From Longivirga aurantiaca (GTDB taxonomy: Bacteria > Actinomycetota > Actinomycetes > S36-B12 > CAIYMF01): 9,694 nucleotides of DNA. Position numbers and translations under genes: made by a program. The stretch is from NCBI RefSeq assembly GCF_042660085.1, contig NZ_JBHSTI010000006.1:1-9694 (forward strand). The letters are read 5' to 3'. Under the pieces are notes generated by a model. It was not told where the DNA came from. It saw nothing but the letters and a program-made list of their open reading frames with translations, and made no database searches. Positions 1 through 9,659 of the stretch are shown here, one piece after another (the stretch's first letter is position 1; each line of letters begins with the position of its first letter).

Positions 1-860
1 CCGCGGACGATCGAGCCCTCCTCGCGGCCATCGCGTCCTACGGGGCCATCGCGCTCAACGGCCTCGCGCACCGAGGTGGCGCGGAGTCGGTGCTGGGTCG
101 ACTGATCTCGGCCACGTCCGAGCGCGATGCCGTCGAGATCCTCGAGCGTCTCGGCTGGGCTGCCGGGACCGCCGTGGTCCCCGTGGTGATCCGGTGCGAC
201 CCCGAGCTCGCCCTGACCAGTCAACGCAGCCTCGACAGCGTGACCCAGACCGTGGAGTCGGTGTTCACCGGGACGCGCGGACGCGCGATCCCGGCGACCA
301 CAGGGGTTGTCGGGGCCCTGCTGACGGTCCCCGCCGGACACGTCGATCCCGCGGCCCTCGCATCCGAGCTGCGGCACGACATCGCCGGAGCGTTGCGGGA
401 CAGGGGGCAGTCCGCCGGCGCGGCGATCGGCGTGGGGCGACCGGCCACCAGCGGGCTGGAGGTCGCGCAGGAGTTCCGATCAGCCGCCTGGGCGGCGACC
501 TGGGCCGCCCTGAGCGAGGACGGGGTCAGGATCGCCCCCGGTGGCGACCAGCGCACGACGCAGCAGCTCTTCACGCTCGAGGTCGAGCTGGCGCCCGCGG
601 TCGCCGAGCAGATCGACCGGATCGGGCGGGTCCAGGCCCACGACCTGCGCCACGGTACGGACCTGCTCGAGACGCTCGCGGTCTTCGTCCGCGAGCGCGG
701 ATCGATCCACCAGACCTCCGAGCAGCTGTTCATCCACCGCAACACCCTGCGGCAGCGCCTCACCAAGATCTCGACGCTCATGGAGCAGCCGATCGAGCGG
801 GTGGAGGACTGGGTCCCGGTGGCGCTCGCGATCCGCGTGCTCCGCTCCCGCACGCCCTGA
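1..860 (+). CDS. PucR/CdaR-family transcriptional regulator, 5'-truncated by the window edge (C-terminal part only)
   Basis: The frame of ORF 90..860 stays open back to position 3 (ADDRALLAAIASYGAIALNG...), so the GTG at 90 is probably not the true start. The C-terminus carries the PucR-type HTH (SEQLFIHRNTLRQRLTKISTLMEQPIE..EDWVPVALAIRVL). This aligns by eye with the C-terminus of the 6834..8705 protein (AEVLGIHRNTLRQRLERITAITGLDLDSADDWLPLQLAVRIV). Stop TGA is at 858-860. Confidence 0.8.
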   Translation, partial: ADDRALLAAIASYGAIALNGLAHRGGAESVLGRLISATSERDAVEILERLGWAAGTAVVPVVIRCDPELALTSQRSLDSVTQTVESVFTGTRGRAIPATTGVVGALLTVPAGHVDPAALASELRHDIAGALRDRGQSAGAAIGVGRPATSGLEVAQEFRSAAWAATWAALSEDGVRIAPGGDQRTTQQLFTLEVELAPAVAEQIDRIGRVQAHDLRHGTDLLETLAVFVRERGSIHQTSEQLFIHRNTLRQRLTKISTLMEQPIERVEDWVPVALAIRVLRSRTP

Positions 861-1160: not shown

Positions 1161-1568
1161 ATGGTCGTGCCAGAGGACAGGTCCGCAGCCGCGGAGGCGG
1201 TGATTCGACTCCGGCTCGCTCCGAGCGATGCGCGCTACGCGGGAGGGCTGGTCGCCGGGTCGAAGGCGATGGAGATCTTCGCCGACCTCGAGACCGAGCT
1301 GTCTCTGCTCGAGGGCGGGGACGAAGGCCTGTGCGTCGCCTACAGCTCGGTGAACTTCCTGGCACCGCTCCGTGTGGGCGACTTCGTCGAGGGCAGGGCG
1401 CACGTCGTCGAGCGCGGCAACACCAGCCGCCTCGTCGAGGCGAGTCTCTACAAGGTCGCGAGCGTGGATGACCGCGGCAGGCTGATCCCCCAGGACGGGC
1501 CGATCCTCGCCGCCACGGCGGTCGCCACGATCGTGGTGGGTCGAGGGTTCGCCGGTCAGGAGAACTGA
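1161..1568 (+). CDS. Hotdog-fold protein resembling beta-alanyl-CoA / 3-aminobutyryl-CoA ammonia-lyases (Acl/Kal type); a thioesterase is the alternative
   Basis: 135-aa ORF with high GC3. The pattern RLRL.PSDARYAGGLVAGSKAMEIFADLETEL....GDEGL.VAY..V.FLAPL.VGDFVEG.A.VVE.GNTS......YKVA matches my recollection of the Acl/Kal signature (DAHY.G.LV.G...F.D..TEL...GD..L..Y..V.FLAP..VGDF.E......GN.S). SD GAGGAGG (1154-1160) abuts ATG 1161, so the in-frame GTG at 1167 (6-nt spacing) may be the real start. Stop TGA is at 1566-1568. Confidence 0.7.
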   Translation: MVVPEDRSAAAEAVIRLRLAPSDARYAGGLVAGSKAMEIFADLETELSLLEGGDEGLCVAYSSVNFLAPLRVGDFVEGRAHVVERGNTSRLVEASLYKVASVDDRGRLIPQDGPILAATAVATIVVGRGFAGQEN

Positions 1569-1569
1569 C

Positions 1570-3060
1570 GTGGCCGGCGCCGCGAGCACCCTCGTCTCCT
1601 GGATCGGCGCTGTGGTCCGGGCCCACCCGAACGACCCCGCCGTGATCTACGAGGGTCAGACCTGGACGTACAAGGAGCTGTGGCAGCGCTCGGCCGTGAT
1701 CGCCCGGGAGCTGCTGGCGTCGGGTGTCCGCCGGGGGGAGGCGGTCGGTCTGGTCGGTGCCAACGAGGCGGTCTACATCGCCACCTACTTCGGGATCATG
1801 CGCGCCGGGGCGACGGCGGTCCCCCTCAACGCCATGCTCGATGCCGCGTCGCTGCGCGACCAGCTCGTGATCGTCGAGGCCCGTACCGTCTTCGTGGGCC
1901 TCGTCGACGCGGAGGTCCGCGACGAGCTCTCCGAGTCCTTCCGGACCCTCCCGATGGGAGGATCGGGCGAGCCGTCGCCACGATCGTCCCTGCCGGCCCT
2001 GGGATCGAGCACGCCGTGCTCGATCATGATGACGAGCGGGTCGACCGGCAGGCCGAAGGGCGCGGTCCACTCCCAGGGGACGATGCTCCACGCCGCCATG
2101 CAGCTGGGATCGGTGTTCCCGTTCGGCTCGGGTCAGCGCGGTGTCGTGTTCCTCCCGCTGTACGCCTGCATCCCGGAGCAGGTCCTCCCGATGCTCTGCA
2201 TGGGTGGTGCCCTGGAGATCCTGCCGCGCTTCGACATCGAGCGCGTGGCCGACGCGTGCTCGCGCGCGACGACCTTCGACGCGGTGCCCACGATCATGGG
2301 CCGGCTCATCGAGCATGCCCCGCTGGAGAAGCTGGCCAAGCTCGAATGGGTGCTGTTCGCCTCCGAGCCCATGCCGCCGGCGCTGCTCCACCGCTGGTGG
2401 GACGAGCTGCCCACGGTCGAGACCCACCAGTTCTACGGGATGACCGAGATCCTGCCGCTCACGGCGGCGCCTCATTGGATCCTGCGCGCCGAGCCGAGCA
2501 CGGTGGGTCGGGCCTTCCCGACCACGAGGCTCGAGGTCCAGGCGGACGATGGCTCCGGCCACTCCGATGGGCAGGGCGAGCTCGTCGGGAGCAGCCCCGC
2601 TCGGCTCCTGAGCTACTACAACGACCAGGACGCCACGGCTCGCGCACTCTCCTCGGACGGCGCCTTCCACACCGGCGACCTCGGCCGCATCGGCGATGAC
2701 GGGCTGGTCTATCTCACCGGCCGGCTCAAGGACGTCATCATCTCCGGCGGCATCAACATCGCCCCGGCGGAGATCGAGCACGTCGCCTGCAACCATCCCG
2801 ACGTCCTGTCCGCGATCGTCGTCGGGATCCCCAGCGAGCGGTGGGGGGAGACTCCGGTGGTCGTCGCCGTCGCCAAGCCAGGTCGTCGGCTGACCGCGGA
2901 CGACATCCTCGCCCACTGCCGGGACAACCTGTCCAGCTACAAGCGCCCCTCCGGTGCTGCCGTCGTCCCCACCATCCCGGTCACGGGGATCGGCAAGGCG
3001 GCCAAGTCGTCGGTCCGGCAGCAGATCATGGATGGGGTGATCCAGCTTGTTCGCGCCTGA
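1570..3060 (+). CDS. AMP-dependent acyl-CoA synthetase/ligase (ANL superfamily), probable short-chain substituted-acid CoA ligase
   Basis: 496 aa. Motifs: TSGSTGRPKG (2032-2061), FYGMTE, HTGDLGRIGDDGLVYLTGRLKDVIISGGINIAPAEIE, and C-terminal GIGKAAK with the catalytic-type Lys. The GTG start is 1 nt after the upstream stop, with AGGAG at 1558-1562 (7-nt spacing). Confidence 0.92.
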   Translation: MAGAASTLVSWIGAVVRAHPNDPAVIYEGQTWTYKELWQRSAVIARELLASGVRRGEAVGLVGANEAVYIATYFGIMRAGATAVPLNAMLDAASLRDQLVIVEARTVFVGLVDAEVRDELSESFRTLPMGGSGEPSPRSSLPALGSSTPCSIMMTSGSTGRPKGAVHSQGTMLHAAMQLGSVFPFGSGQRGVVFLPLYACIPEQVLPMLCMGGALEILPRFDIERVADACSRATTFDAVPTIMGRLIEHAPLEKLAKLEWVLFASEPMPPALLHRWWDELPTVETHQFYGMTEILPLTAAPHWILRAEPSTVGRAFPTTRLEVQADDGSGHSDGQGELVGSSPARLLSYYNDQDATARALSSDGAFHTGDLGRIGDDGLVYLTGRLKDVIISGGINIAPAEIEHVACNHPDVLSAIVVGIPSERWGETPVVVAVAKPGRRLTADDILAHCRDNLSSYKRPSGAAVVPTIPVTGIGKAAKSSVRQQIMDGVIQLVRA

Positions 3061-3976
3061 CGCCCTGCGCGCCATGGTGGAGGGCGGGAGAGCGGGCTCG
3101 TGGGGTCCGCTCGCCCGGGCCATCACCGTCGTCGAGAACAGCGCGCCGTGGGACGTGGTCATCCCGCGGGCCGAGAAGCCCGCGCACATCGTGGGGATCA
3201 CCGGGCCACCGGGGGCGGGGAAGTCGACCCTGACGGGGGCTCTCATCGCGGAGTACGCCGACGCCGGATGTCGCGTCGCCGTGCTGGCGATCGACCCGTC
3301 GAGCCCCCTGAGCGGCGGGGCCGTTCTCGGTGATCGCCTGCGGATGGAGACCCACCTGAACGGTCGGCCCGACGTCTTCGTCCGGAGCCTCGCCAGCCGG
3401 GGGACGCACGGGGCCGTCGCCGGCTCCACCCGCAACATCGCGCGGCTCCTCGAGCTCTCCGGCCTGTTCGACGTCATCCTCATCGAGACCGTGGGGGCCG
3501 GCCAGACCGAGGTCGCGATCGTCGAGGTGGCCGACACGGTCGTCCTGGTCACGGTCCCCGGGCTGGGGGATGCCGTGCAGACGATCAAGGCAGGGCTCAT
3601 GGAGGTGGCCGACATGTTCGTCGTGAACATGTCGGACCGCCCCGGAGCGGCGGAGACGGCGCGTCACCTGCGGCTCGCGGCCGGGCGCGGGAGCGCCGTG
3701 CTCCAGACGACGGCCCGCGACGGTGTCGGGGTCGACGAGGTCCGGCTCGCGCTGGACGCGCGCTGGGAGGAGCTCTCGCGGGACGCGCGGCTGGAGGAGC
3801 TCAGGGCACGCAAGTGGGGGACCGACGCGGCGCTGATCGCGGAGGCGTGGGTCGGGGCATGCGCGCACGCGCTGCCGATGGAAGACGGCCGAGGCATGGC
3901 TCAGACCGTGGACGACATCCTCAGGGATGCGTCGGAGCGGTGGCAGATTCAACGACAGGAGCGCAGTGATGACTGA
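3047..3976 (+). CDS. meaB: MeaB/ArgK-type G-protein chaperone for a B12-dependent acyl-CoA mutase
   Basis: 309 aa. P-loop GITGPPGAGKSTL (about 3194-3232). Switch I-like AIDPSSPLSGGAVLGDRLRM. Switch II ETVGAGQTE. G4-like VNMSD (3626-3637). N-terminal LARAITVVEN is typical of MeaB. The TTG start at 3047 (GGGGTGA 6 nt upstream) overlaps the ligase stop by 14 nt. In-frame ATG 3074 is an alternative start without an SD. Confidence 0.9.
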   Translation: MFAPDALRAMVEGGRAGSWGPLARAITVVENSAPWDVVIPRAEKPAHIVGITGPPGAGKSTLTGALIAEYADAGCRVAVLAIDPSSPLSGGAVLGDRLRMETHLNGRPDVFVRSLASRGTHGAVAGSTRNIARLLELSGLFDVILIETVGAGQTEVAIVEVADTVVLVTVPGLGDAVQTIKAGLMEVADMFVVNMSDRPGAAETARHLRLAAGRGSAVLQTTARDGVGVDEVRLALDARWEELSRDARLEELRARKWGTDAALIAEAWVGACAHALPMEDGRGMAQTVDDILRDASERWQIQRQERSDD

Positions 3977-5639
3977 GACCACCGACGCACGGGTCGAGGC
4001 GTGGAAGCGGGAGAACCTCGCTCGGGACTACGAACGGGTCCCACCGCGACGTGAGCGCTTCGAGACCTTGTCCGGGATCGAGGTCGACGACATCTACACG
4101 CCGGCATCGGTCAGCGGGTTCGACCCCGACCGGGATCTCGGCCTCCCCGGTCAGTACCCCTTCACCCGTGGTGTGCACGCCAGCATGTACCGCGGGCGCC
4201 CGTGGACCATCCGCCAGGTGGCCGGGTTCGGCCAGGCCGAGGACACGAACAACCGCTACAAGTACCTGCTCAAGACCGGTCAGACGGGGTTGTCGACGGA
4301 CTTCGACCTGCCGACGCTGCTCGGCTACGACTCCGATCACGAGGTCTTCCGTCGCGAGGTCGGGAAGATCGGCGTCGCCGTCGACACCGTCGTCGACATG
4401 CATGCGCTGTTCGACGGGATCCCGTTGGACCAGATCTCGACGTCGATGACCATCAACCCGACCGCGGCGATCCTGCTCGCCATGTACCGGGTGGTCGGCG
4501 ACGAGCGCGGGTACCCGGGCCATGTGCTCACCGGCACGACGCAGAACGACATCCTCAAGGAGTACACGGCTCAGAACGAGTTCATCTTCCCGCCCCTTCC
4601 CGCCGTGGAGCTCGTCGTGGACACGATGGAGTACGGGGCGGACGTCATGCCGCGCTTCAACCCGTTGAACGCCTGCGGGTATCACATCCGCGAAGCGGGC
4701 GCGACCGCGGTGGAGGAGGTGGGGCTGACCCTCAGCGCCGCCCTGTGCTACCTCGAGCACGCGGTGGCGCGCGGCATCGACGTGGACCGGCTGGCCCCGC
4801 GGGTCTCGTTCTTCTGGGACGTCCACAACAACTTCTTCGAGGAGGCGGCGAAGCTGCGGGCCGCTCGGCGGCTCTGGGCGCGTCTCATGCGGGAGCGGCT
4901 CAACTGCAAGGACCCGAAGTCGTGGCTGATGCGTGCCCACTGCCAGACCGCCGGGGTGTCGCTGACCGCTCAGCAGCCGTACAACAACGTGGCGCGGACT
5001 GCGCTCCAGGCGATGGCAGCCGTGCTGGGCGGGACGCAGTCCCTCCACACCAACTCCCTCGACGAGGCGCTGTCCATCCCGTCGGAGAGCGCGATCAAGA
5101 TCGCGGTCCGGACGCAGCAGATCATCCTCCACGAGACGGGTGTCGCCGATGTCGTCGATCCCCTCGCCGGTTCCTACTTCGTCGAGGCGCTCACCACGCA
5201 GATCGAGGAGGAGGCCCTCGCGCTGATCGAGCGCATCGACGCGATGGGCGGGATGATCCAGGCCGTCGAGTCGGGGTACGCCGGTCAGCTCATCGCCGAC
5301 TCGGCGTGGGAGCAGCAGGTCCGGCTCGAGAGCAACGAGCAGATCCAGGTGGGCGTGAACGACTTCGTGGACGAGGGCGAGCAGCAGCAGATCGAGATCG
5401 ACCGTCCGATCCCGGGGGTCATGGAGCGCCAGATGCAGCGGCTCGCCGACGTCAAGCGCTCGCGCGAGCAGAAGCGCGTGACGGAGACGCTTCGCGCCAT
5501 CGAGTCCGCCGCACCGAACCTGCACACCAACCTGATGCCGCTCATCGAGGACGCCGTGCGCGCTCGTGCCTCCGTCGGGGAGATCTCCGACGTCCTCCGG
5601 GGCACCTGGGGCCAGTACCAGCCCTCAACCGTCTTCTAG
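3969..5639 (+). CDS. Adenosylcobalamin-dependent acyl-CoA mutase, large (substrate-binding TIM-barrel) subunit; 2-hydroxyisobutyryl-CoA mutase (HcmA)-like
   Basis: Hallmarks of the methylmalonyl-CoA mutase family: [109 protein letters not shown] chose ATG 3969 (AGGAG 3957-3961, 7-nt spacing; 8-nt overlap with the meaB-like stop) over the track's 3927. This gives 556 aa. Stop TAG is at 5637-5639. Confidence 0.93.
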
Positions 5640-5664
5640 TCCAGCAACCGAGGAGATCACTGAC

Positions 5665-6102
5665 ATGGAAACCCCCTCTGGGACGAGGTCCGCCCCGCTC
5701 AAGGTCGTCGTGGCCAAGCCGGGCCTGGACGGGCACGACCGTGGCGCCAAGGTCGTGGCGCGGGCGCTGCGCGACGCCGGGATGGAGGTCGTCTACACCG
5801 GCATCTACCAGACCCCCGAGTCGATCATGCGCGCGGTCATCCAGGAGGACGCCGACGTCCTCGGTCTGTCGAGCCTCTCGGGCGCCCATCTCGAGTACGG
5901 CGAGGAGCTCGGCCGGCTCCTCAAGGAGAACGACAGGGCCGACGTGCTCTTCGTGGCCGGCGGGACGATCCCGCCCGAGGACGCGGCGGTGCTCAAGGAG
6001 CACGGCGTGCACGAGGTCTTCGGCCCCGGCACGCCGACCACGACCCTGGTCGAGTACGTGCGGCAGTACGCGCGGAACGTGTCCGCGATCCCCCGGGGGT
6101 AG
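5665..6102 (+). CDS. Acyl-CoA mutase small subunit, cobalamin-binding (Rossmann-like B12 domain; HcmB/IcmB-like)
   Basis: 145 aa from ATG 5665 (GAGGAG 5650-5655). DxHxxG base-off/His-on motif LDGHDRG (5728-5745, His codon 5734-5736), followed by SSLSG and VAGGTIP. The N-terminal 33 codons of track ORF 5566..6102 are Pro/Ser-rich, overlap the end of the large subunit and are unlikely to be coding. Confidence 0.92.
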
Positions 6103-6106
6103 TCGA

Positions 6107-6694
6107 GTGGTCACGCTGACGAGGATCTACACGCGGGCAGGGGACGGCGGGCAGACCCGGCTCGGCGACATGAGCCGGGTCAGCAAGCTGGACTCGCGTC
6201 TCCAGGCCTACGCCGATGTCGACGAGGCCAACAGCCACATCGGGCTCGCGATCTCCCTGGGGGGCCTCGGCGGCATGGAACCGGACGTCGCCGATGTGCT
6301 CCGCCAGATCCAGAACGAGCTGTTCGATGTCGGGGCGGACCTGTGCCGGCCCGTCGTCGAGGCGGACTCGGCGCCGCACCTCAGGATCGAGCCCGCCTAC
6401 ATCCAGCGGCTCGAACGGTGGTGCGACACGTTCAACGCACCCCTGCCGGAGCTGAGCTCCTTCGTCCTGCGGGGCGGCACGCCGGCCGGAGCCGCGATCC
6501 ACGTCGCCTGCACGGTGACCCGGCGAGCCGAACGCTCGACGTGGGCGGCGATCGAGGAGCACGGATCAGGTGTGAACGTCCTTGCCGCGAGCTACCTGAA
6601 CCGTCTCAGCGATCTGCTGTTCGTCCTGGCCCGGTACACGAACCGCCACCACGGAGATGTCCTGTGGGAGCCGGGACGAGCCCTGGACCTGTGA
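6107..6694 (+). CDS. PduO-type ATP:cob(I)alamin adenosyltransferase (MMAB-like)
   Basis: 195 aa from GTG 6107, 4 nt after the upstream TAG. The N-terminus VTLTRIYTRAGDGGQTRLGDMSRVSKLDSRLQAYADVDEANSHIG is the classic PduO/MMAB signature. It continues with IQNELFDVGADL, FVLRGGTPAGAAIHVACTVTRRAER and LNRLSDLLFVLAR. Only the last 195 codons of track ORF 4202..6694 are real. Confidence 0.92.
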   Translation: MVTLTRIYTRAGDGGQTRLGDMSRVSKLDSRLQAYADVDEANSHIGLAISLGGLGGMEPDVADVLRQIQNELFDVGADLCRPVVEADSAPHLRIEPAYIQRLERWCDTFNAPLPELSSFVLRGGTPAGAAIHVACTVTRRAERSTWAAIEEHGSGVNVLAASYLNRLSDLLFVLARYTNRHHGDVLWEPGRALDL

Positions 6695-6833: not shown

Positions 6834-8705
6834 GTGAGGTCCCTGACGGCAGAGCCGGTGCTCGATGCGATGGCGAGGCCCGGTGCCGCGGACCTCACCG
6901 AGGTCGGGCGCGCCCTGGACCGGGCCGAGCGGCTCCGGTCCGCACTCGCGCAGCTGCTGACCGCTGTGGGGATGAACCTCGAGTTCTCCGAGTTCACGGG
7001 CCGTGCGGTGGAGATCGTCAGGGATGCGGTCGACGCCGATGGAGTCTTCCTGCACCTGTGGGACTCCGAGCGCCAGATGCTGGTCCTGACGGCCGCCACC
7101 GAGGGTGTCGCGAAGGGCTACCTCCATCGGATCGAGGCGCAGCTCGGGCAGGGGCTCAACGGGCTCGCCGCGCTCCGCCAGCAGCCCGTGGTCGTCAATG
7201 CGGCTCCTGCCGACGACCCGCACTTCCGCAGCTTCCCCGAGCTGAACGAGGGCGACTACCAGTCGACCGCCAAGCTGCCGCTGTTCCGCGCGGATCGGAC
7301 TCTCGTCGGGGTGCTCTCGCTCAACGCCCGCACGCCGGGTCGGTTCGGGGACTCCCATCTGGCCGTGGCGACGGAGCTGGCGGGACTGTTCGCGGGACTG
7401 ATCGACTCCGCGTCGACCGGCGGCGCGGTGGCCCGCCGTGCCCGCATGCTCGACACGCTCACCGAGCTCACCGCCTCCCTGGCATCCGCGGGTCCGGCGT
7501 ACGAGGTGCTCGGCAGCGTGACCAATGCGGCCGTGTCCGCCATGGATGCCGACCTGTCCGTCCTGGTGCTCCCCGACCCGGAGACCGGTGAGCTCGCGGT
7601 GCGCTCCGTCGCCCCGTTCAGGTCGGACGTCCTGGACGAGCTGGCGGCGCTGGGGGTTCGTCCAGGCATGTCGGTGCCGCATGCCGAGGCGAGGTCGTCG
7701 CAGCTGCAGGGGTACCTGAAAGGCGACCTCGTCGACCGATTCGGCTTCATGGAGTCTGCGGCCCTCGCCCCCGGTGACGACAGCGCGGGGTTCCTCGCCT
7801 GCTACCGGCGCCGCAGGTTCTGCTCGGAGGATCTCCATCTGCTGTCCGTGATGGCTCATCACGTCGGCCTGGCGCTCATGGACCCGTCCACGCGCTGGGA
7901 CGGACGTGACCAGTCCTGTCGCGTCGTGTTCGAGCGTCTCGCCCGCGGAGTCTTCGATGACGAGACCGCGTCCCTGGCGAGCGGCATGGGTCTTGATCCG
8001 GCCAAGCCGCTGGTGCTGCTACGTGGCCGGCTGGCCGCGTCGGCCACGCCGCGTCGCGACGCCTCGCCCCCGGACATCAGCCGTGCTGTCGAGTCCGTCA
8101 TGTCGATGATCGTCAGCTTCTACCCCGGGTCCCTGACCTACGTGGCCCTCAATCAGATCTACGGACTCATCGAGGTCGCTGACAGCGATGGAGACCGCAG
8201 GCTGCTCAAGCGCCTGGGCGAGCTCTCGGATCGCGCCGGTCAGAGGGGCGTCGTGCTCGAGGCGGGTGTGAGCGGTGTCGTGCCTCACGCGGTCGACATC
8301 CCGCGGGCCTTCCGCGAGTCCAACGACGCGCTGGTGATCGGGGCGAAGGTCGGCGGATCGCGGGTCAATCATTACGAGGACCTCGCCGGCTCCATGCACC
8401 TGTATCGGGTGGCCGTCGACCCGGCCTTCGATCACGACCCGACGGTCTCCCAGCTCCTCCACCTGCTGGAGCACGACCGGAGACGCGGTACCCGGCTGCT
8501 TCCGACGCTCGACGTCTACCTGTCGTCGCGAGGAAACGGCAGCCACGCGGCAGAGGTGCTCGGAATCCATCGGAACACCCTGCGTCAACGTCTCGAACGG
8601 ATCACCGCGATCACGGGACTCGACCTCGATTCGGCCGACGACTGGCTCCCGCTCCAGCTCGCCGTGCGGATCGTGGCCATCCGGCGATCCGCGGCTCAGT
8701 CCTGA
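6834..8705 (+). CDS. Tandem-GAF-domain PucR-family transcriptional regulator
   Basis: 623 aa. There are two GAF-like sensor regions, roughly residues 25-200 and 205-350 (e.g. VFLHLWDSERQMLVLTAA...LPLFRADRTLVGVLSLNA, and LSVLVLPDPETGELAVRS...AGFLACYRRRRFCSEDLHLLSVMAHHVGLAL). A central PucR-type domain follows, then the C-terminal HTH AEVLGIHRNTLRQRLERITAITGLDLDSADDWLPLQLAVRIV. The GTG start overlaps SD-like GAGGAGG, so the exact start is uncertain. Confidence 0.88.
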   Translation: MRSLTAEPVLDAMARPGAADLTEVGRALDRAERLRSALAQLLTAVGMNLEFSEFTGRAVEIVRDAVDADGVFLHLWDSERQMLVLTAATEGVAKGYLHRIEAQLGQGLNGLAALRQQPVVVNAAPADDPHFRSFPELNEGDYQSTAKLPLFRADRTLVGVLSLNARTPGRFGDSHLAVATELAGLFAGLIDSASTGGAVARRARMLDTLTELTASLASAGPAYEVLGSVTNAAVSAMDADLSVLVLPDPETGELAVRSVAPFRSDVLDELAALGVRPGMSVPHAEARSSQLQGYLKGDLVDRFGFMESAALAPGDDSAGFLACYRRRRFCSEDLHLLSVMAHHVGLALMDPSTRWDGRDQSCRVVFERLARGVFDDETASLASGMGLDPAKPLVLLRGRLAASATPRRDASPPDISRAVESVMSMIVSFYPGSLTYVALNQIYGLIEVADSDGDRRLLKRLGELSDRAGQRGVVLEAGVSGVVPHAVDIPRAFRESNDALVIGAKVGGSRVNHYEDLAGSMHLYRVAVDPAFDHDPTVSQLLHLLEHDRRRGTRLLPTLDVYLSSRGNGSHAAEVLGIHRNTLRQRLERITAITGLDLDSADDWLPLQLAVRIVAIRRSAAQS

Positions 8706-8710
8706 TCCAC

Positions 8711-8726
8711 CCCGGGTGCTGCCGGG
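8711..8726. terminator. Weak GC hairpin between convergent genes (possible bidirectional terminator)
   Basis: CCCGG (8711-8715), loop GTGCTG, CCGGG (8722-8726), within the 28-bp gap between stop 8705 (+) and stop 8734 (-). The stem is only 5 bp and there is no U-tract. Confidence 0.2.
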
Positions 8727-8733
8727 TCGGGGG

Positions 8734-9659
8734 TCACCCCTCGTTCCGCCCGCTCTTCGCGAGCCGCAGCTCCCTGACGACGTCGGCGACCATGTGGACC
8801 GATGCGTGATCGAGGATGTTGCCGAACTCCACCACGCGCACGCGTCCCTCGAGCTGGCGGCGCAGCTCAGGCATCTCGCTCGGAACGACGACGAGGTCCA
8901 CCCCCTGAAGATCCTCGTCGGAGGTGCCGCGCAGCACCGAGATGTTCGAGAAGCCAGACTGGGTGAGCGAGTCCCGGATGCTGACCGCCTGCTCCTCGGT
9001 CGAGTAGCAGATGCCCACCGACCGGCTCCGGGGCACCTGGGAGATCTGGACGAGCGTCTGCACGTGGGGTCCCACGACGAGTCCTACGACCTCGGTCCTC
9101 GGCCGACGCATCATCTTGCGCACCTCGGCGAGATGGAAGAACGTCGTCAGGACGAGATCCGGGCTCTCGTCGGCCGGCTCGAAGGCTCCCAGCACGAGCG
9201 GTCGCACCGGAGTGCCGACGTGCGCCTCGATCTCGCTCGCGAAGTACTTGGCCCGGTCGCTGTTGCACTCGACGAAGACGATCTCCAGGTTCCCCGCGTG
9301 CGCCCGGGCGGCGAAGGATACCGCGAGCGAGTGCACCTCGGCGGCGGCCAGTCCGAGCGCCATGCTCTCCGCCACCGCCGACTCCAGCAGGGCTGCCGCG
9401 CGGTCGCCGTCGACCGAGGATGGCTGCGTCCGGTCACCACTGACGACGACCATGCCGTTGCGGCCCTTGGACTCGAGCAGACCCGTGTCTCTGAGCTCTG
9501 CGTAGGCGTGGGCGACGGTGTTCCGGTTGATGTGGAGTTGTCGGCCAGCAGGCGTGCGCTGGGGAGCCGCTCACCCTCCTTGAGCTGGCCCATCTCGATC
9601 ATGAACGCGAGCTGCGACACGATCTGGCGGTAGACAGGCAGGTCGGAGTGGTGCGTCAC
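8734..9659 (-). pseudogene. GntR-family transcriptional regulator with an uncharacterised ~230-aa C-terminal effector domain, interrupted by an apparent 1-nt deletion in the HTH
   Basis: Frame A (9659 downwards) reads MTHHSDLPVYRQIVSQLAFMIEMGQLKEGERLPSARLLAD, then junk. Frame B has a stop at 9571-9573, then reads RQLHINRNTVAHAYAELRDTGLLESKGRNGMVVVSGD... through to 8734. Joining them at about 9540-9542 restores a canonical GntR winged HTH (LPSARLLAD-QLHINRNTVAHAYAELRDTGLLES). The frame stays open upstream of 9659 to the window edge, so the N-terminus could also lie outside the window. Confidence 0.75.

Follow-up and report, generated by a model that had tools for sequence, protein, structure and literature searches.

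Adenosylcobalamin-dependent acyl-coenzyme A (acyl-CoA) mutases form a small group of B12 enzymes that work by radical chemistry. Two or three residues of the pocket determine each known specificity, and the substrates described so far are methylmalonyl-, isobutyryl-, ethylmalonyl-, 2-hydroxyisobutyryl- and pivalyl-CoA. A 9,694-nucleotide contig of the actinobacterium Longivirga aurantiaca (NZ_JBHSTI010000006.1, which we analyzed in full and call the window) encodes the large subunit of such a mutase with Val84, Asp111 and Gln202 (V/D/Q) in its pocket, and the locus raises the question of which acyl-CoA an enzyme with this combination rearranges. Here, we find that V/D/Q marks a separate clade of actinobacterial acyl-CoA mutases, as yet uncharacterised, that is sister to HcmA of 2-hydroxyisobutyryl-CoA mutase (EC 5.4.99.64). 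We propose, with a probability of about one half, that its most likely reaction is the interconversion of 2-aminoisobutyryl-CoA and 3-aminobutyryl-CoA. At somewhat less than an even chance, it would also be the first adenosylcobalamin-dependent acyl-CoA mutase to act on an alpha-amino acyl-CoA, in a three-enzyme B12 route for the 2-aminoisobutyrate residues of peptaibols in soil actinobacteria.

The large subunit belongs to the acyl-CoA mutase family: it scores 697.4 bits against TIGR00641 (cut-off 303.8), PF01642 is recorded for the protein, and its best solved relative is HcmA (4r3u_A, E 1.3e-169). The catalytic Tyr-His pair is present as Tyr238-His239 in CGYHIREAG, which aligns with sgYHmqeag of methylmalonyl-CoA mutase (MCM; Tyr243/His244), and a B12-binding partner with a DxHxxG motif, a MeaB-type chaperone and an adenosyltransferase are all encoded beside it. 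Numbered from ATG 3969 (the choice between this start and ATG 3927 changes the numbering only), the three pocket residues are encoded as follows.

4218..4220, plus strand: codon GTG for Val84, equivalent to Ile90 of HcmA, Tyr89 of MCM and Phe of isobutyryl-CoA mutase (ICM)
4299..4301, plus strand: codon GAC for Asp111, equivalent to Asp117 of HcmA and Ala116 of MCM
4572..4574, plus strand: codon CAG for Gln202, equivalent to Gln208 of HcmA and Arg207 of MCM, in the context KEYTA-Q-NEF

These are exactly the codon positions given in an earlier note on this DNA, and the equivalences it proposed hold in gap-free alignment to solved structures. The phmmer alignments are ungapped around all three sites, with V84 facing the Ile of 'wtmrqIagf' in HcmA (4r3u), D111 aligning with 'gistDfd' and Q202 with 'keymaQke', and the same columns of P. 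shermanii MCM hold Tyr89, Ala116 and Arg207 (the literature number being the chain index plus 1). In the Methylibium PM1 and Xanthobacter Py2 proteins, native numbering gives exactly I90, D117 and Q208. The spacings from V84 to D111 (27 residues, the same as from I90 to D117, as the note had counted) and from V84 to Q202 (118 residues) match those of the references. The printed alignment shows a single difference between 5req and 1req, F versus Y at the column facing V84, which fits 5req being the Tyr89Phe mutant. The alignment thus bears out the view that the enzyme keeps the Asp and Gln of HcmA and has Val in place of Ile: Val84 is found in the window's enzyme and its whole clade, and Ile in all I/D/Q loci inspected. 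The combination is also unlike any characterised class, these being Y/A/R (MCM), F/A/Q (ICM) and I/D/Q (HcmA); we found no characterised V/D/Q enzyme, and every hcm locus inspected is I/D/Q.

How widespread is this signature? All 120 of the closest homologues in a collection of 5.8 billion proteins (73-90% identical to the query) carry V/D/Q, and they come from Nocardioides, Jiangella, Streptomyces, Nonomuraea, Amycolatopsis, Haloechinothrix, Solirubrobacterales, Thermoleophilales and many metagenomes. The same three residues occur in 12 of 12 close genome loci and in a paralogue on C15, another contig of the Longivirga assembly. Because about 35% of the columns in the close-homologue set are invariant, this constancy carries only modest weight by itself. 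Across the wider family the combination is rare: the 150 best representatives (50% identity clusters; the counts leave out two added references, human MCM and HcmA) include 74 Y/A/R, 17 F/A/Q and 2 I/D/Q sequences, with the query as the sole V/D/Q member. A plasmid collection contained no V/D/Q member, its top matches (Deinococcus, Brevibacillus, haloarchaea) lying in methylmalonyl-type or unrelated gene contexts.

In a maximum-likelihood tree, the V/D/Q clade is monophyletic (support 100/100) on a long stem of 0.58, and the I/D/Q clade with every classical HcmA is likewise monophyletic (100/100, stem 0.35), which leaves the query outside the clade of characterised HcmA sequences. The two clades join as sisters with support 96/79 through a very short joining branch, and a quick tree agrees. 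By identity the query is about equally distant from HcmA (about 48%), ICM (51%) and MCM (49%). IcmA/IcmB, IcmF and MCM share its fold, cofactor, chaperone system and radical 1,2-thioester shift at 49-51% identity, but ICM (F/A/Q) and MCM (Y/A/R) both lack the Asp. Between the V/D/Q and I/D/Q clades, 53 positions are fixed differently, Val84 being one of them; the smaller Val may enlarge the pocket, as the note suggested. Clade-specific changes in segments adjoining known pocket residues are Asn193 (Ala199 in HcmA), Asn203 (Lys209), Cys236 (Ser242), Ser280 (Ala286), Trp283 (Phe289), Gly-Val-Ser 329-331 (Ala-Ala-Thr 335-337) and Ser-Leu 363-364 (Gly-Tyr 369-370).

The large subunit is one of six genes in a compact plus-strand operon (1161-6694) of the high-GC window, flanked by two PucR-type regulators and one GntR regulator that we describe at the end.

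1161..1568, plus strand: hotdog protein of the Kal/Acl aminoacyl-CoA ammonia-lyase family, first operon gene (NF052388 and 4mtu matches)
1570..3060, plus strand: AMP-forming acyl-CoA ligase of the FadD/MenE type, not a PaaK-type HCL (profile and PDB matches)
3047..3976, plus strand: MeaB-like G-protein chaperone (GTPase; TIGR00750, 232.8 bits, just below the cut-off of 240.75)
3969..5639, plus strand: acyl-CoA mutase large (substrate-binding) subunit, 556 amino acids, V/D/Q clade (TIGR00641, 697.4 bits)
5665..6102, plus strand: small B12-binding subunit with DxHxxG motif (DGHDRG; TIGR00640, E 9.7e-46)
6110..6694, plus strand: PduO-type ATP:cob(I)alamin adenosyltransferase (PF01923, E 2.6e-57)

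The closest known system is HcmAB/HCL/MeaH of Aquincola tertiaricarbonis and Methylibium petroleiphilum PM1 (4r3u), whose gene cluster likewise encodes separate large and small subunits together with a MeaB-type chaperone, a CoA ligase and a GntR regulator. Its enzyme has the same two polar pocket residues, Asp and Gln, and belongs to the nearest clade in the tree. This likeness suggests a first alternative, that the V/D/Q enzyme is an ordinary 2-hydroxyisobutyryl-CoA mutase, an actinobacterial isozyme of HcmAB in which Ile-to-Val is a tolerated lineage change and the hotdog protein is a dehydratase, a thioesterase or unrelated. We consider this unlikely, though far from negligible. The shared GntR/ligase/MeaB/large/small logic of hcm clusters (PMC7176365) is in its favor, but the V/D/Q enzyme is only about 48% identical to HcmA, has Val for Ile90 and many further pocket-region differences, and its operon differs in gene order, in an unrelated ligase family and in the added Kal-like ammonia-lyase gene. 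In HcmA itself, moreover, the I90V exchange lowers kcat/Km from 481 to 10.9 M-1 s-1, about 44-fold, according to a secondary compilation (PMC12025749), so that Val is costly for the hydroxy substrate in that background.

Gene context separates the two types further. V/D/Q operons run from the Kal-like hotdog gene through the FadD-type ligase and MeaB to the large and small subunits, an order present in the window, on C15, in 10 of the 12 genome loci and on one metagenome contig, whereas in the classical hcm loci of Methylibium PM1, Xanthobacter Py2 and Mycobacterium ELW1 a GntR gene is followed by small subunit, ligase, MeaB and large subunit. The I/D/Q hcm loci inspected were those of the Aquincola 4r3u protein, PM1, Py2, ELW1 and three Nocardioidaceae genomes; a PaaK-type HCL is present in the last six, none of which has a Kal-like gene. 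The HCL of PM1 is nearly identical to the 6hdw sequence (E 0, full length), and a 3-hydroxybutyryl-CoA dehydrogenase lies close to the hcm genes in PM1 and ELW1. The window's ligase gives no tblastn match to the HCL genes of PM1, Py2 and ELW1, and 6hdw does not appear in its PDB matches at E up to 1e-40. A single bacterial family can contain both types, each in its own context: of 400 sampled Nocardioidaceae genomes, three are I/D/Q, with HCL and MeaB immediately upstream, and one is V/D/Q, with a Kal-like gene. Among the loci inspected, the residue at position 84/90 tracks gene context without exception.

Two loci depart from the V/D/Q order (L009 and L010, from Dactylosporangium and Sphaerisporangium). 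Their large subunit, at 8001-9653, stands beside a thiamine pyrophosphate (TPP) enzyme and a GntR gene and has no adjacent small subunit, MeaB, ligase or Kal-like gene; the Dactylosporangium genome has a Kal-like gene about 25 kb from its solitary V/D/Q large subunit. The characterised 2-hydroxyisobutyryl-CoA mutases named in PMC7176365 and PMC11599936 come from Aquincola, Kyrpidia and Bacillus massiliosenegalensis. Nocardioides JS614 is also said to encode such a mutase and to grow on 2-hydroxyisobutyrate (PMC2847961), and its enzyme is probably I/D/Q, because three genomes of the Nocardioidaceae sample are I/D/Q with HCL and only one is V/D/Q. As a clue to the substrate, we set the window's ligase aside, its solved relatives being generic FadD or feruloyl-CoA enzymes.

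What, then, does the Kal-like gene suggest about the mutase beside it? Among protein families, the hotdog protein matches NF052388 (3-aminobutyryl-CoA ammonia lyase) best, at E 2.9e-28 and 98.6 bits, and the one solved structure clearly related to it is that of beta-alanyl-CoA:ammonia lyase (4mtu, E 8.2e-13, residues 13-126). Its orthologues from Streptomyces boninensis and Jiangella already bear the name '3-aminobutyryl-CoA ammonia lyase' in NCBI and UniRef, and in 10 of 12 related loci the gene adjoins those of the mutase. The only known activities of this small hotdog family, to which Kal of lysine fermentation and Acl (4mtu) both belong, are eliminations of ammonia from beta-aminoacyl-CoA (NF052388, 4mtu), and we predict the same here; the predicted mutase product, 3-aminobutyryl-CoA, would be the substrate of Kal. 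The window's protein differs in having DARY in place of the DAHY of Acl, and the V/D/Q hotdog genes, in aerobic actinobacteria, neighbor a B12 mutase instead of genes for lysine fermentation. In Solirubrobacterales-type operons, an N-terminal RidA/L-PSP-like domain of about 90 residues is fused to the Kal-like domain (L043:9001-9696; P0425, P0443 and P0468), with Pfam scores of 23.5-30 bits against a cut-off of 27.3; RidA is an imine deaminase family. Other actinobacterial families have distant Kal-like genes (39-50% identical) without a mutase in their vicinity; these have no bearing on the argument. A third, distant Kal-like gene of the Longivirga genome (40% identical) lies on the main chromosome contig at C8:1580746-1581099, away from any mutase.

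A second alternative arises from the hotdog protein itself, since its best solved relative acts on beta-alanyl-CoA: the mutase may act on another amino or branched acyl-CoA, either interconverting alanyl-CoA and beta-alanyl-CoA, with the hotdog protein as beta-alanyl-CoA ammonia-lyase, or accepting only a larger 2,2-dialkyl substrate, so that 2-aminoisobutyrate is not physiological. HCM-type mutases can be evolved toward lactyl-CoA and 3-hydroxypropionyl-CoA, the hydroxy analogue of the alanyl pair (PMC11599936), and a smaller residue 84 could accommodate an ethyl group. We nevertheless regard this alternative as improbable. For alanine a B12 route is unnecessary, the smaller side chain of Val compared with Ile is contrary to what a smaller substrate would call for, and NCBIfam places the hotdog protein nearest Kal; the decarboxylase association described below indicates dialkylglycines generally, of which 2-aminoisobutyrate is the commonest.

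From the observed residues, clade and gene associations, we infer a substrate, roles for Asp111 and Val84, and an activity for each enzyme of a 2-aminoisobutyrate pathway. The FadD-type ligase would activate 2-aminoisobutyrate to its CoA ester. The mutase, aided by MeaB and the PduO-type adenosyltransferase, would then shift the thioester group reversibly by a 1,2-rearrangement between 2-aminoisobutyryl-CoA and (S)-3-aminobutyryl-CoA, turning a tertiary amine into a beta-amine, and the Kal-like hotdog enzyme would eliminate ammonia from the beta position of 3-aminobutyryl-CoA to yield crotonyl-CoA. Isovaline, as an isovalyl-type dialkylglycyl-CoA, may be handled in the same way. In the pocket, Asp111 may bind the protonated amine as a counter-ion, much as Asp117 of HcmA reportedly hydrogen-bonds the substrate hydroxyl, while Gln202 would stand in place of the carboxylate-binding Arg of MCM, and Val84 would shape the pocket together with the clade-specific Asn193 and Asn203. 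If the stereocontrol of HcmA carries over, the product would be the (S)-isomer, the substrate of Kal. Such a route would use exactly the three catalytic genes that are always conserved: Kal-like, ligase and mutase.

The chemistry of the proposed substrate offers a rationale for such a route. With no alpha-hydrogen available, a tertiary amine is out of reach of transaminases, dehydrogenases and oxidases, a logic that parallels the reason 2-hydroxyisobutyrate needs a mutase. The same argument is made for beta-valine in PMC4619459, which describes a pathway of Pseudomonas sp. SBV1 in which a tertiary amine is likewise activated as a CoA ester and lost by elimination; in that pathway the amine is already at the beta position, and hence no carbon-skeleton mutase is needed. 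If our proposal for the V/D/Q enzyme is correct, a natural amino-accepting mutase would extend the pocket-residue code of specificity, would explain how the tertiary amine is removed in bacteria without dialkylglycine decarboxylase, and would provide a catalyst linking 2-aminoisobutyrate with the beta-amino acid 3-aminobutyrate. In the searchable literature, whose coverage leaves out most subscription journals and so gives no proof of novelty, we found no mention of aminoisobutyryl-CoA and no paper bringing 2-aminoisobutyric acid together with a B12 mutase.

Do the neighbors of V/D/Q operons point to the same substrate? The enzyme classically associated with 2-aminoisobutyrate and isovaline, the signature residues of fungal peptaibols, is dialkylglycine decarboxylase, which is specific for these two amino acids. 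In the Nocardioides furvisabuli locus, a class-III aminotransferase in the same gene string as the V/D/Q operon matches 2,2-dialkylglycine decarboxylase (1dgd, E 2.6e-179); in Nonomuraea, a 75%-identical copy of this orthologue lies directly upstream of the Kal-like gene, and in Jiangella endophytica an orthologue lies 7.6 kb upstream.

L007:13525-14835: 2,2-dialkylglycine decarboxylase orthologue, Nocardioides
L014:3467-4756: 2,2-dialkylglycine decarboxylase orthologue, Nonomuraea
G702:C8:125579-126865: 2,2-dialkylglycine decarboxylase orthologue, Jiangella

Orthologues of the decarboxylase occur in all five V/D/Q genomes that were searched whole (five genera), within 10 kb in three of them, against a background of 4 in 400 sampled actinobacterial genomes; the mutase was the means of locating these five, and genomes that share ancestry do not count as independent. 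Peptide-degrading functions recur as well. A peptidase of family S58 (DmpA/BapA-type aminopeptidase) directly follows the small subunit in four loci of Streptomyces and Jiangella, and an M19 dipeptidase, gamma-glutamyltranspeptidase, DUF885 and a family-5 peptide-binding protein recur near V/D/Q operons.

L011:10108-11223: peptidase S58
L018:10098-11204: peptidase S58
L012:10105-11190: peptidase S58
L013:10103-11170: peptidase S58

Near the S58-containing loci, the family-5 peptide-binding protein is accompanied by a permease. The decarboxylase and peptidase associations would have no role in a 2-hydroxyisobutyrate route. Together with the Kal-like ammonia-lyase gene, they lend independent support to the suggestion in the earlier note that the Asp would suit a protonated amine.

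The decarboxylase route itself, known from Burkholderia cepacia (1dgd), presumably serves the same growth substrate, 2-aminoisobutyrate, but proceeds by oxidative decarboxylation to acetone that depends on pyridoxal phosphate and on neither CoA nor B12. Where both enzymes are present, a third explanation comes into view: the decarboxylase would yield acetone, a TPP enzyme would join acetone with formyl-CoA to give 2-hydroxyisobutyryl-CoA, and the mutase would convert this to 3-hydroxybutyryl-CoA, as in Desulfococcus biacutus. Decarboxylase, a homologue of the TPP-dependent lyase and mutase are neighbors in the Nocardioides and Jiangella loci, and a lyase-plus-mutase acetone route is described for a sulfate reducer (PMC7176365, PMC7888143). 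This explanation is the least probable of those we weighed, in that it leaves the Kal-like gene without a role and fits neither the window's genome, which has no decarboxylase and no TPP enzyme, nor Nonomuraea, which has no TPP enzyme; the core that is always conserved consists of the Kal-like gene, ligase and mutase.

Several observations weigh against an amino substrate, and some of them favor the isozyme explanation. The clade is sister to HcmA and shares its Asp and Gln, so that 2-hydroxyisobutyryl-CoA is a natural candidate substrate. Close homologues of the actinobacterial 2-hydroxyisobutyryl-CoA lyase (7pt1, E 5.5e-127) occur in 6 of the 12 V/D/Q loci, as they do in the classical hcm loci of PM1 and ELW1, which suggests 2-hydroxyacyl-CoA chemistry in the V/D/Q neighborhood.

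L012:11272-13050: 2-hydroxyisobutyryl-CoA lyase homologue
L007:10190-11944: 2-hydroxyisobutyryl-CoA lyase homologue
L015:11720-13585: 2-hydroxyisobutyryl-CoA lyase homologue
L009:5934-7673: 2-hydroxyisobutyryl-CoA lyase homologue

A 3-hydroxybutyryl-CoA dehydrogenase homologue follows the C15 operon (16101-16937), and the window's own genome has neither a dialkylglycine decarboxylase nor a 2-hydroxyisobutyryl-CoA lyase homologue. The hotdog protein, at 98.6 bits, falls below the NF052388 equivalog cut-off of 160 and could have another activity, for example as a dehydratase or thioesterase. Finally, we know of no acyl-CoA mutase that acts on an alpha-amino thioester, and all evidence for the amino substrate is comparative. 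In our judgment, the split in gene context, the decarboxylase association and the unrelated ligase outweigh these points, and it is on this balance that we assign the aminoisobutyryl-CoA mutase the probability given at the outset. As a separate observation, the lyase homologue is often accompanied by a second FadD-type ligase, 57-60% identical to that of the window.

Within the Longivirga assembly, all six genes of the operon, from the Kal-like gene to the adenosyltransferase, are present again on contig C15 (C15:10245-15881, L042). The large subunit of this copy, also V/D/Q, is 91% identical to that of the window, and the other genes are 73-87% identical. The window is a whole 9.7-kb contig of 69.8% G+C and C15 measures 24 kb at 64.0%, compared with 72% for the whole genome, and no V/D/Q mutase was found in 62 other genomes of the same family or in 300 sampled from the order. 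Because of the deviating G+C and this absence from relatives, both operons have either been acquired recently (by horizontal acquisition, on a plasmid) or been binned from another organism; their origin leaves the enzyme-level conclusion unaffected. The same genome also encodes two Y/A/R mutase large subunits and, to judge by a 1108-amino-acid open frame and the NCBIfam IcmF model, a fused IcmF-type mutase, so the V/D/Q enzymes are additional to a standard set.

C2:563283-564851; C8:730363-731868; C3:18116-19768: the other mutases of the genome (two Y/A/R large subunits and the IcmF-type enzyme)

The remaining genes of the window are the regulators that flank the operon.

3..860, plus strand: PucR-type regulator, C-terminal part, truncated by the contig end (PF13556 and GGDEF_2)
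6834..8705, plus strand: GAF-PucR regulator (GAF_2, GGDEF_2, HTH_30)
8734..9659, minus strand: GntR-family regulator, here in two reading frames, its N- and C-terminal parts matching separately

In other loci, the GntR regulator next to the V/D/Q operon is a single open reading frame of 317-338 amino acids, and on contig C15 both matched parts share one frame. The GntR domain was confirmed on the L012 orthologue of the split regulator.

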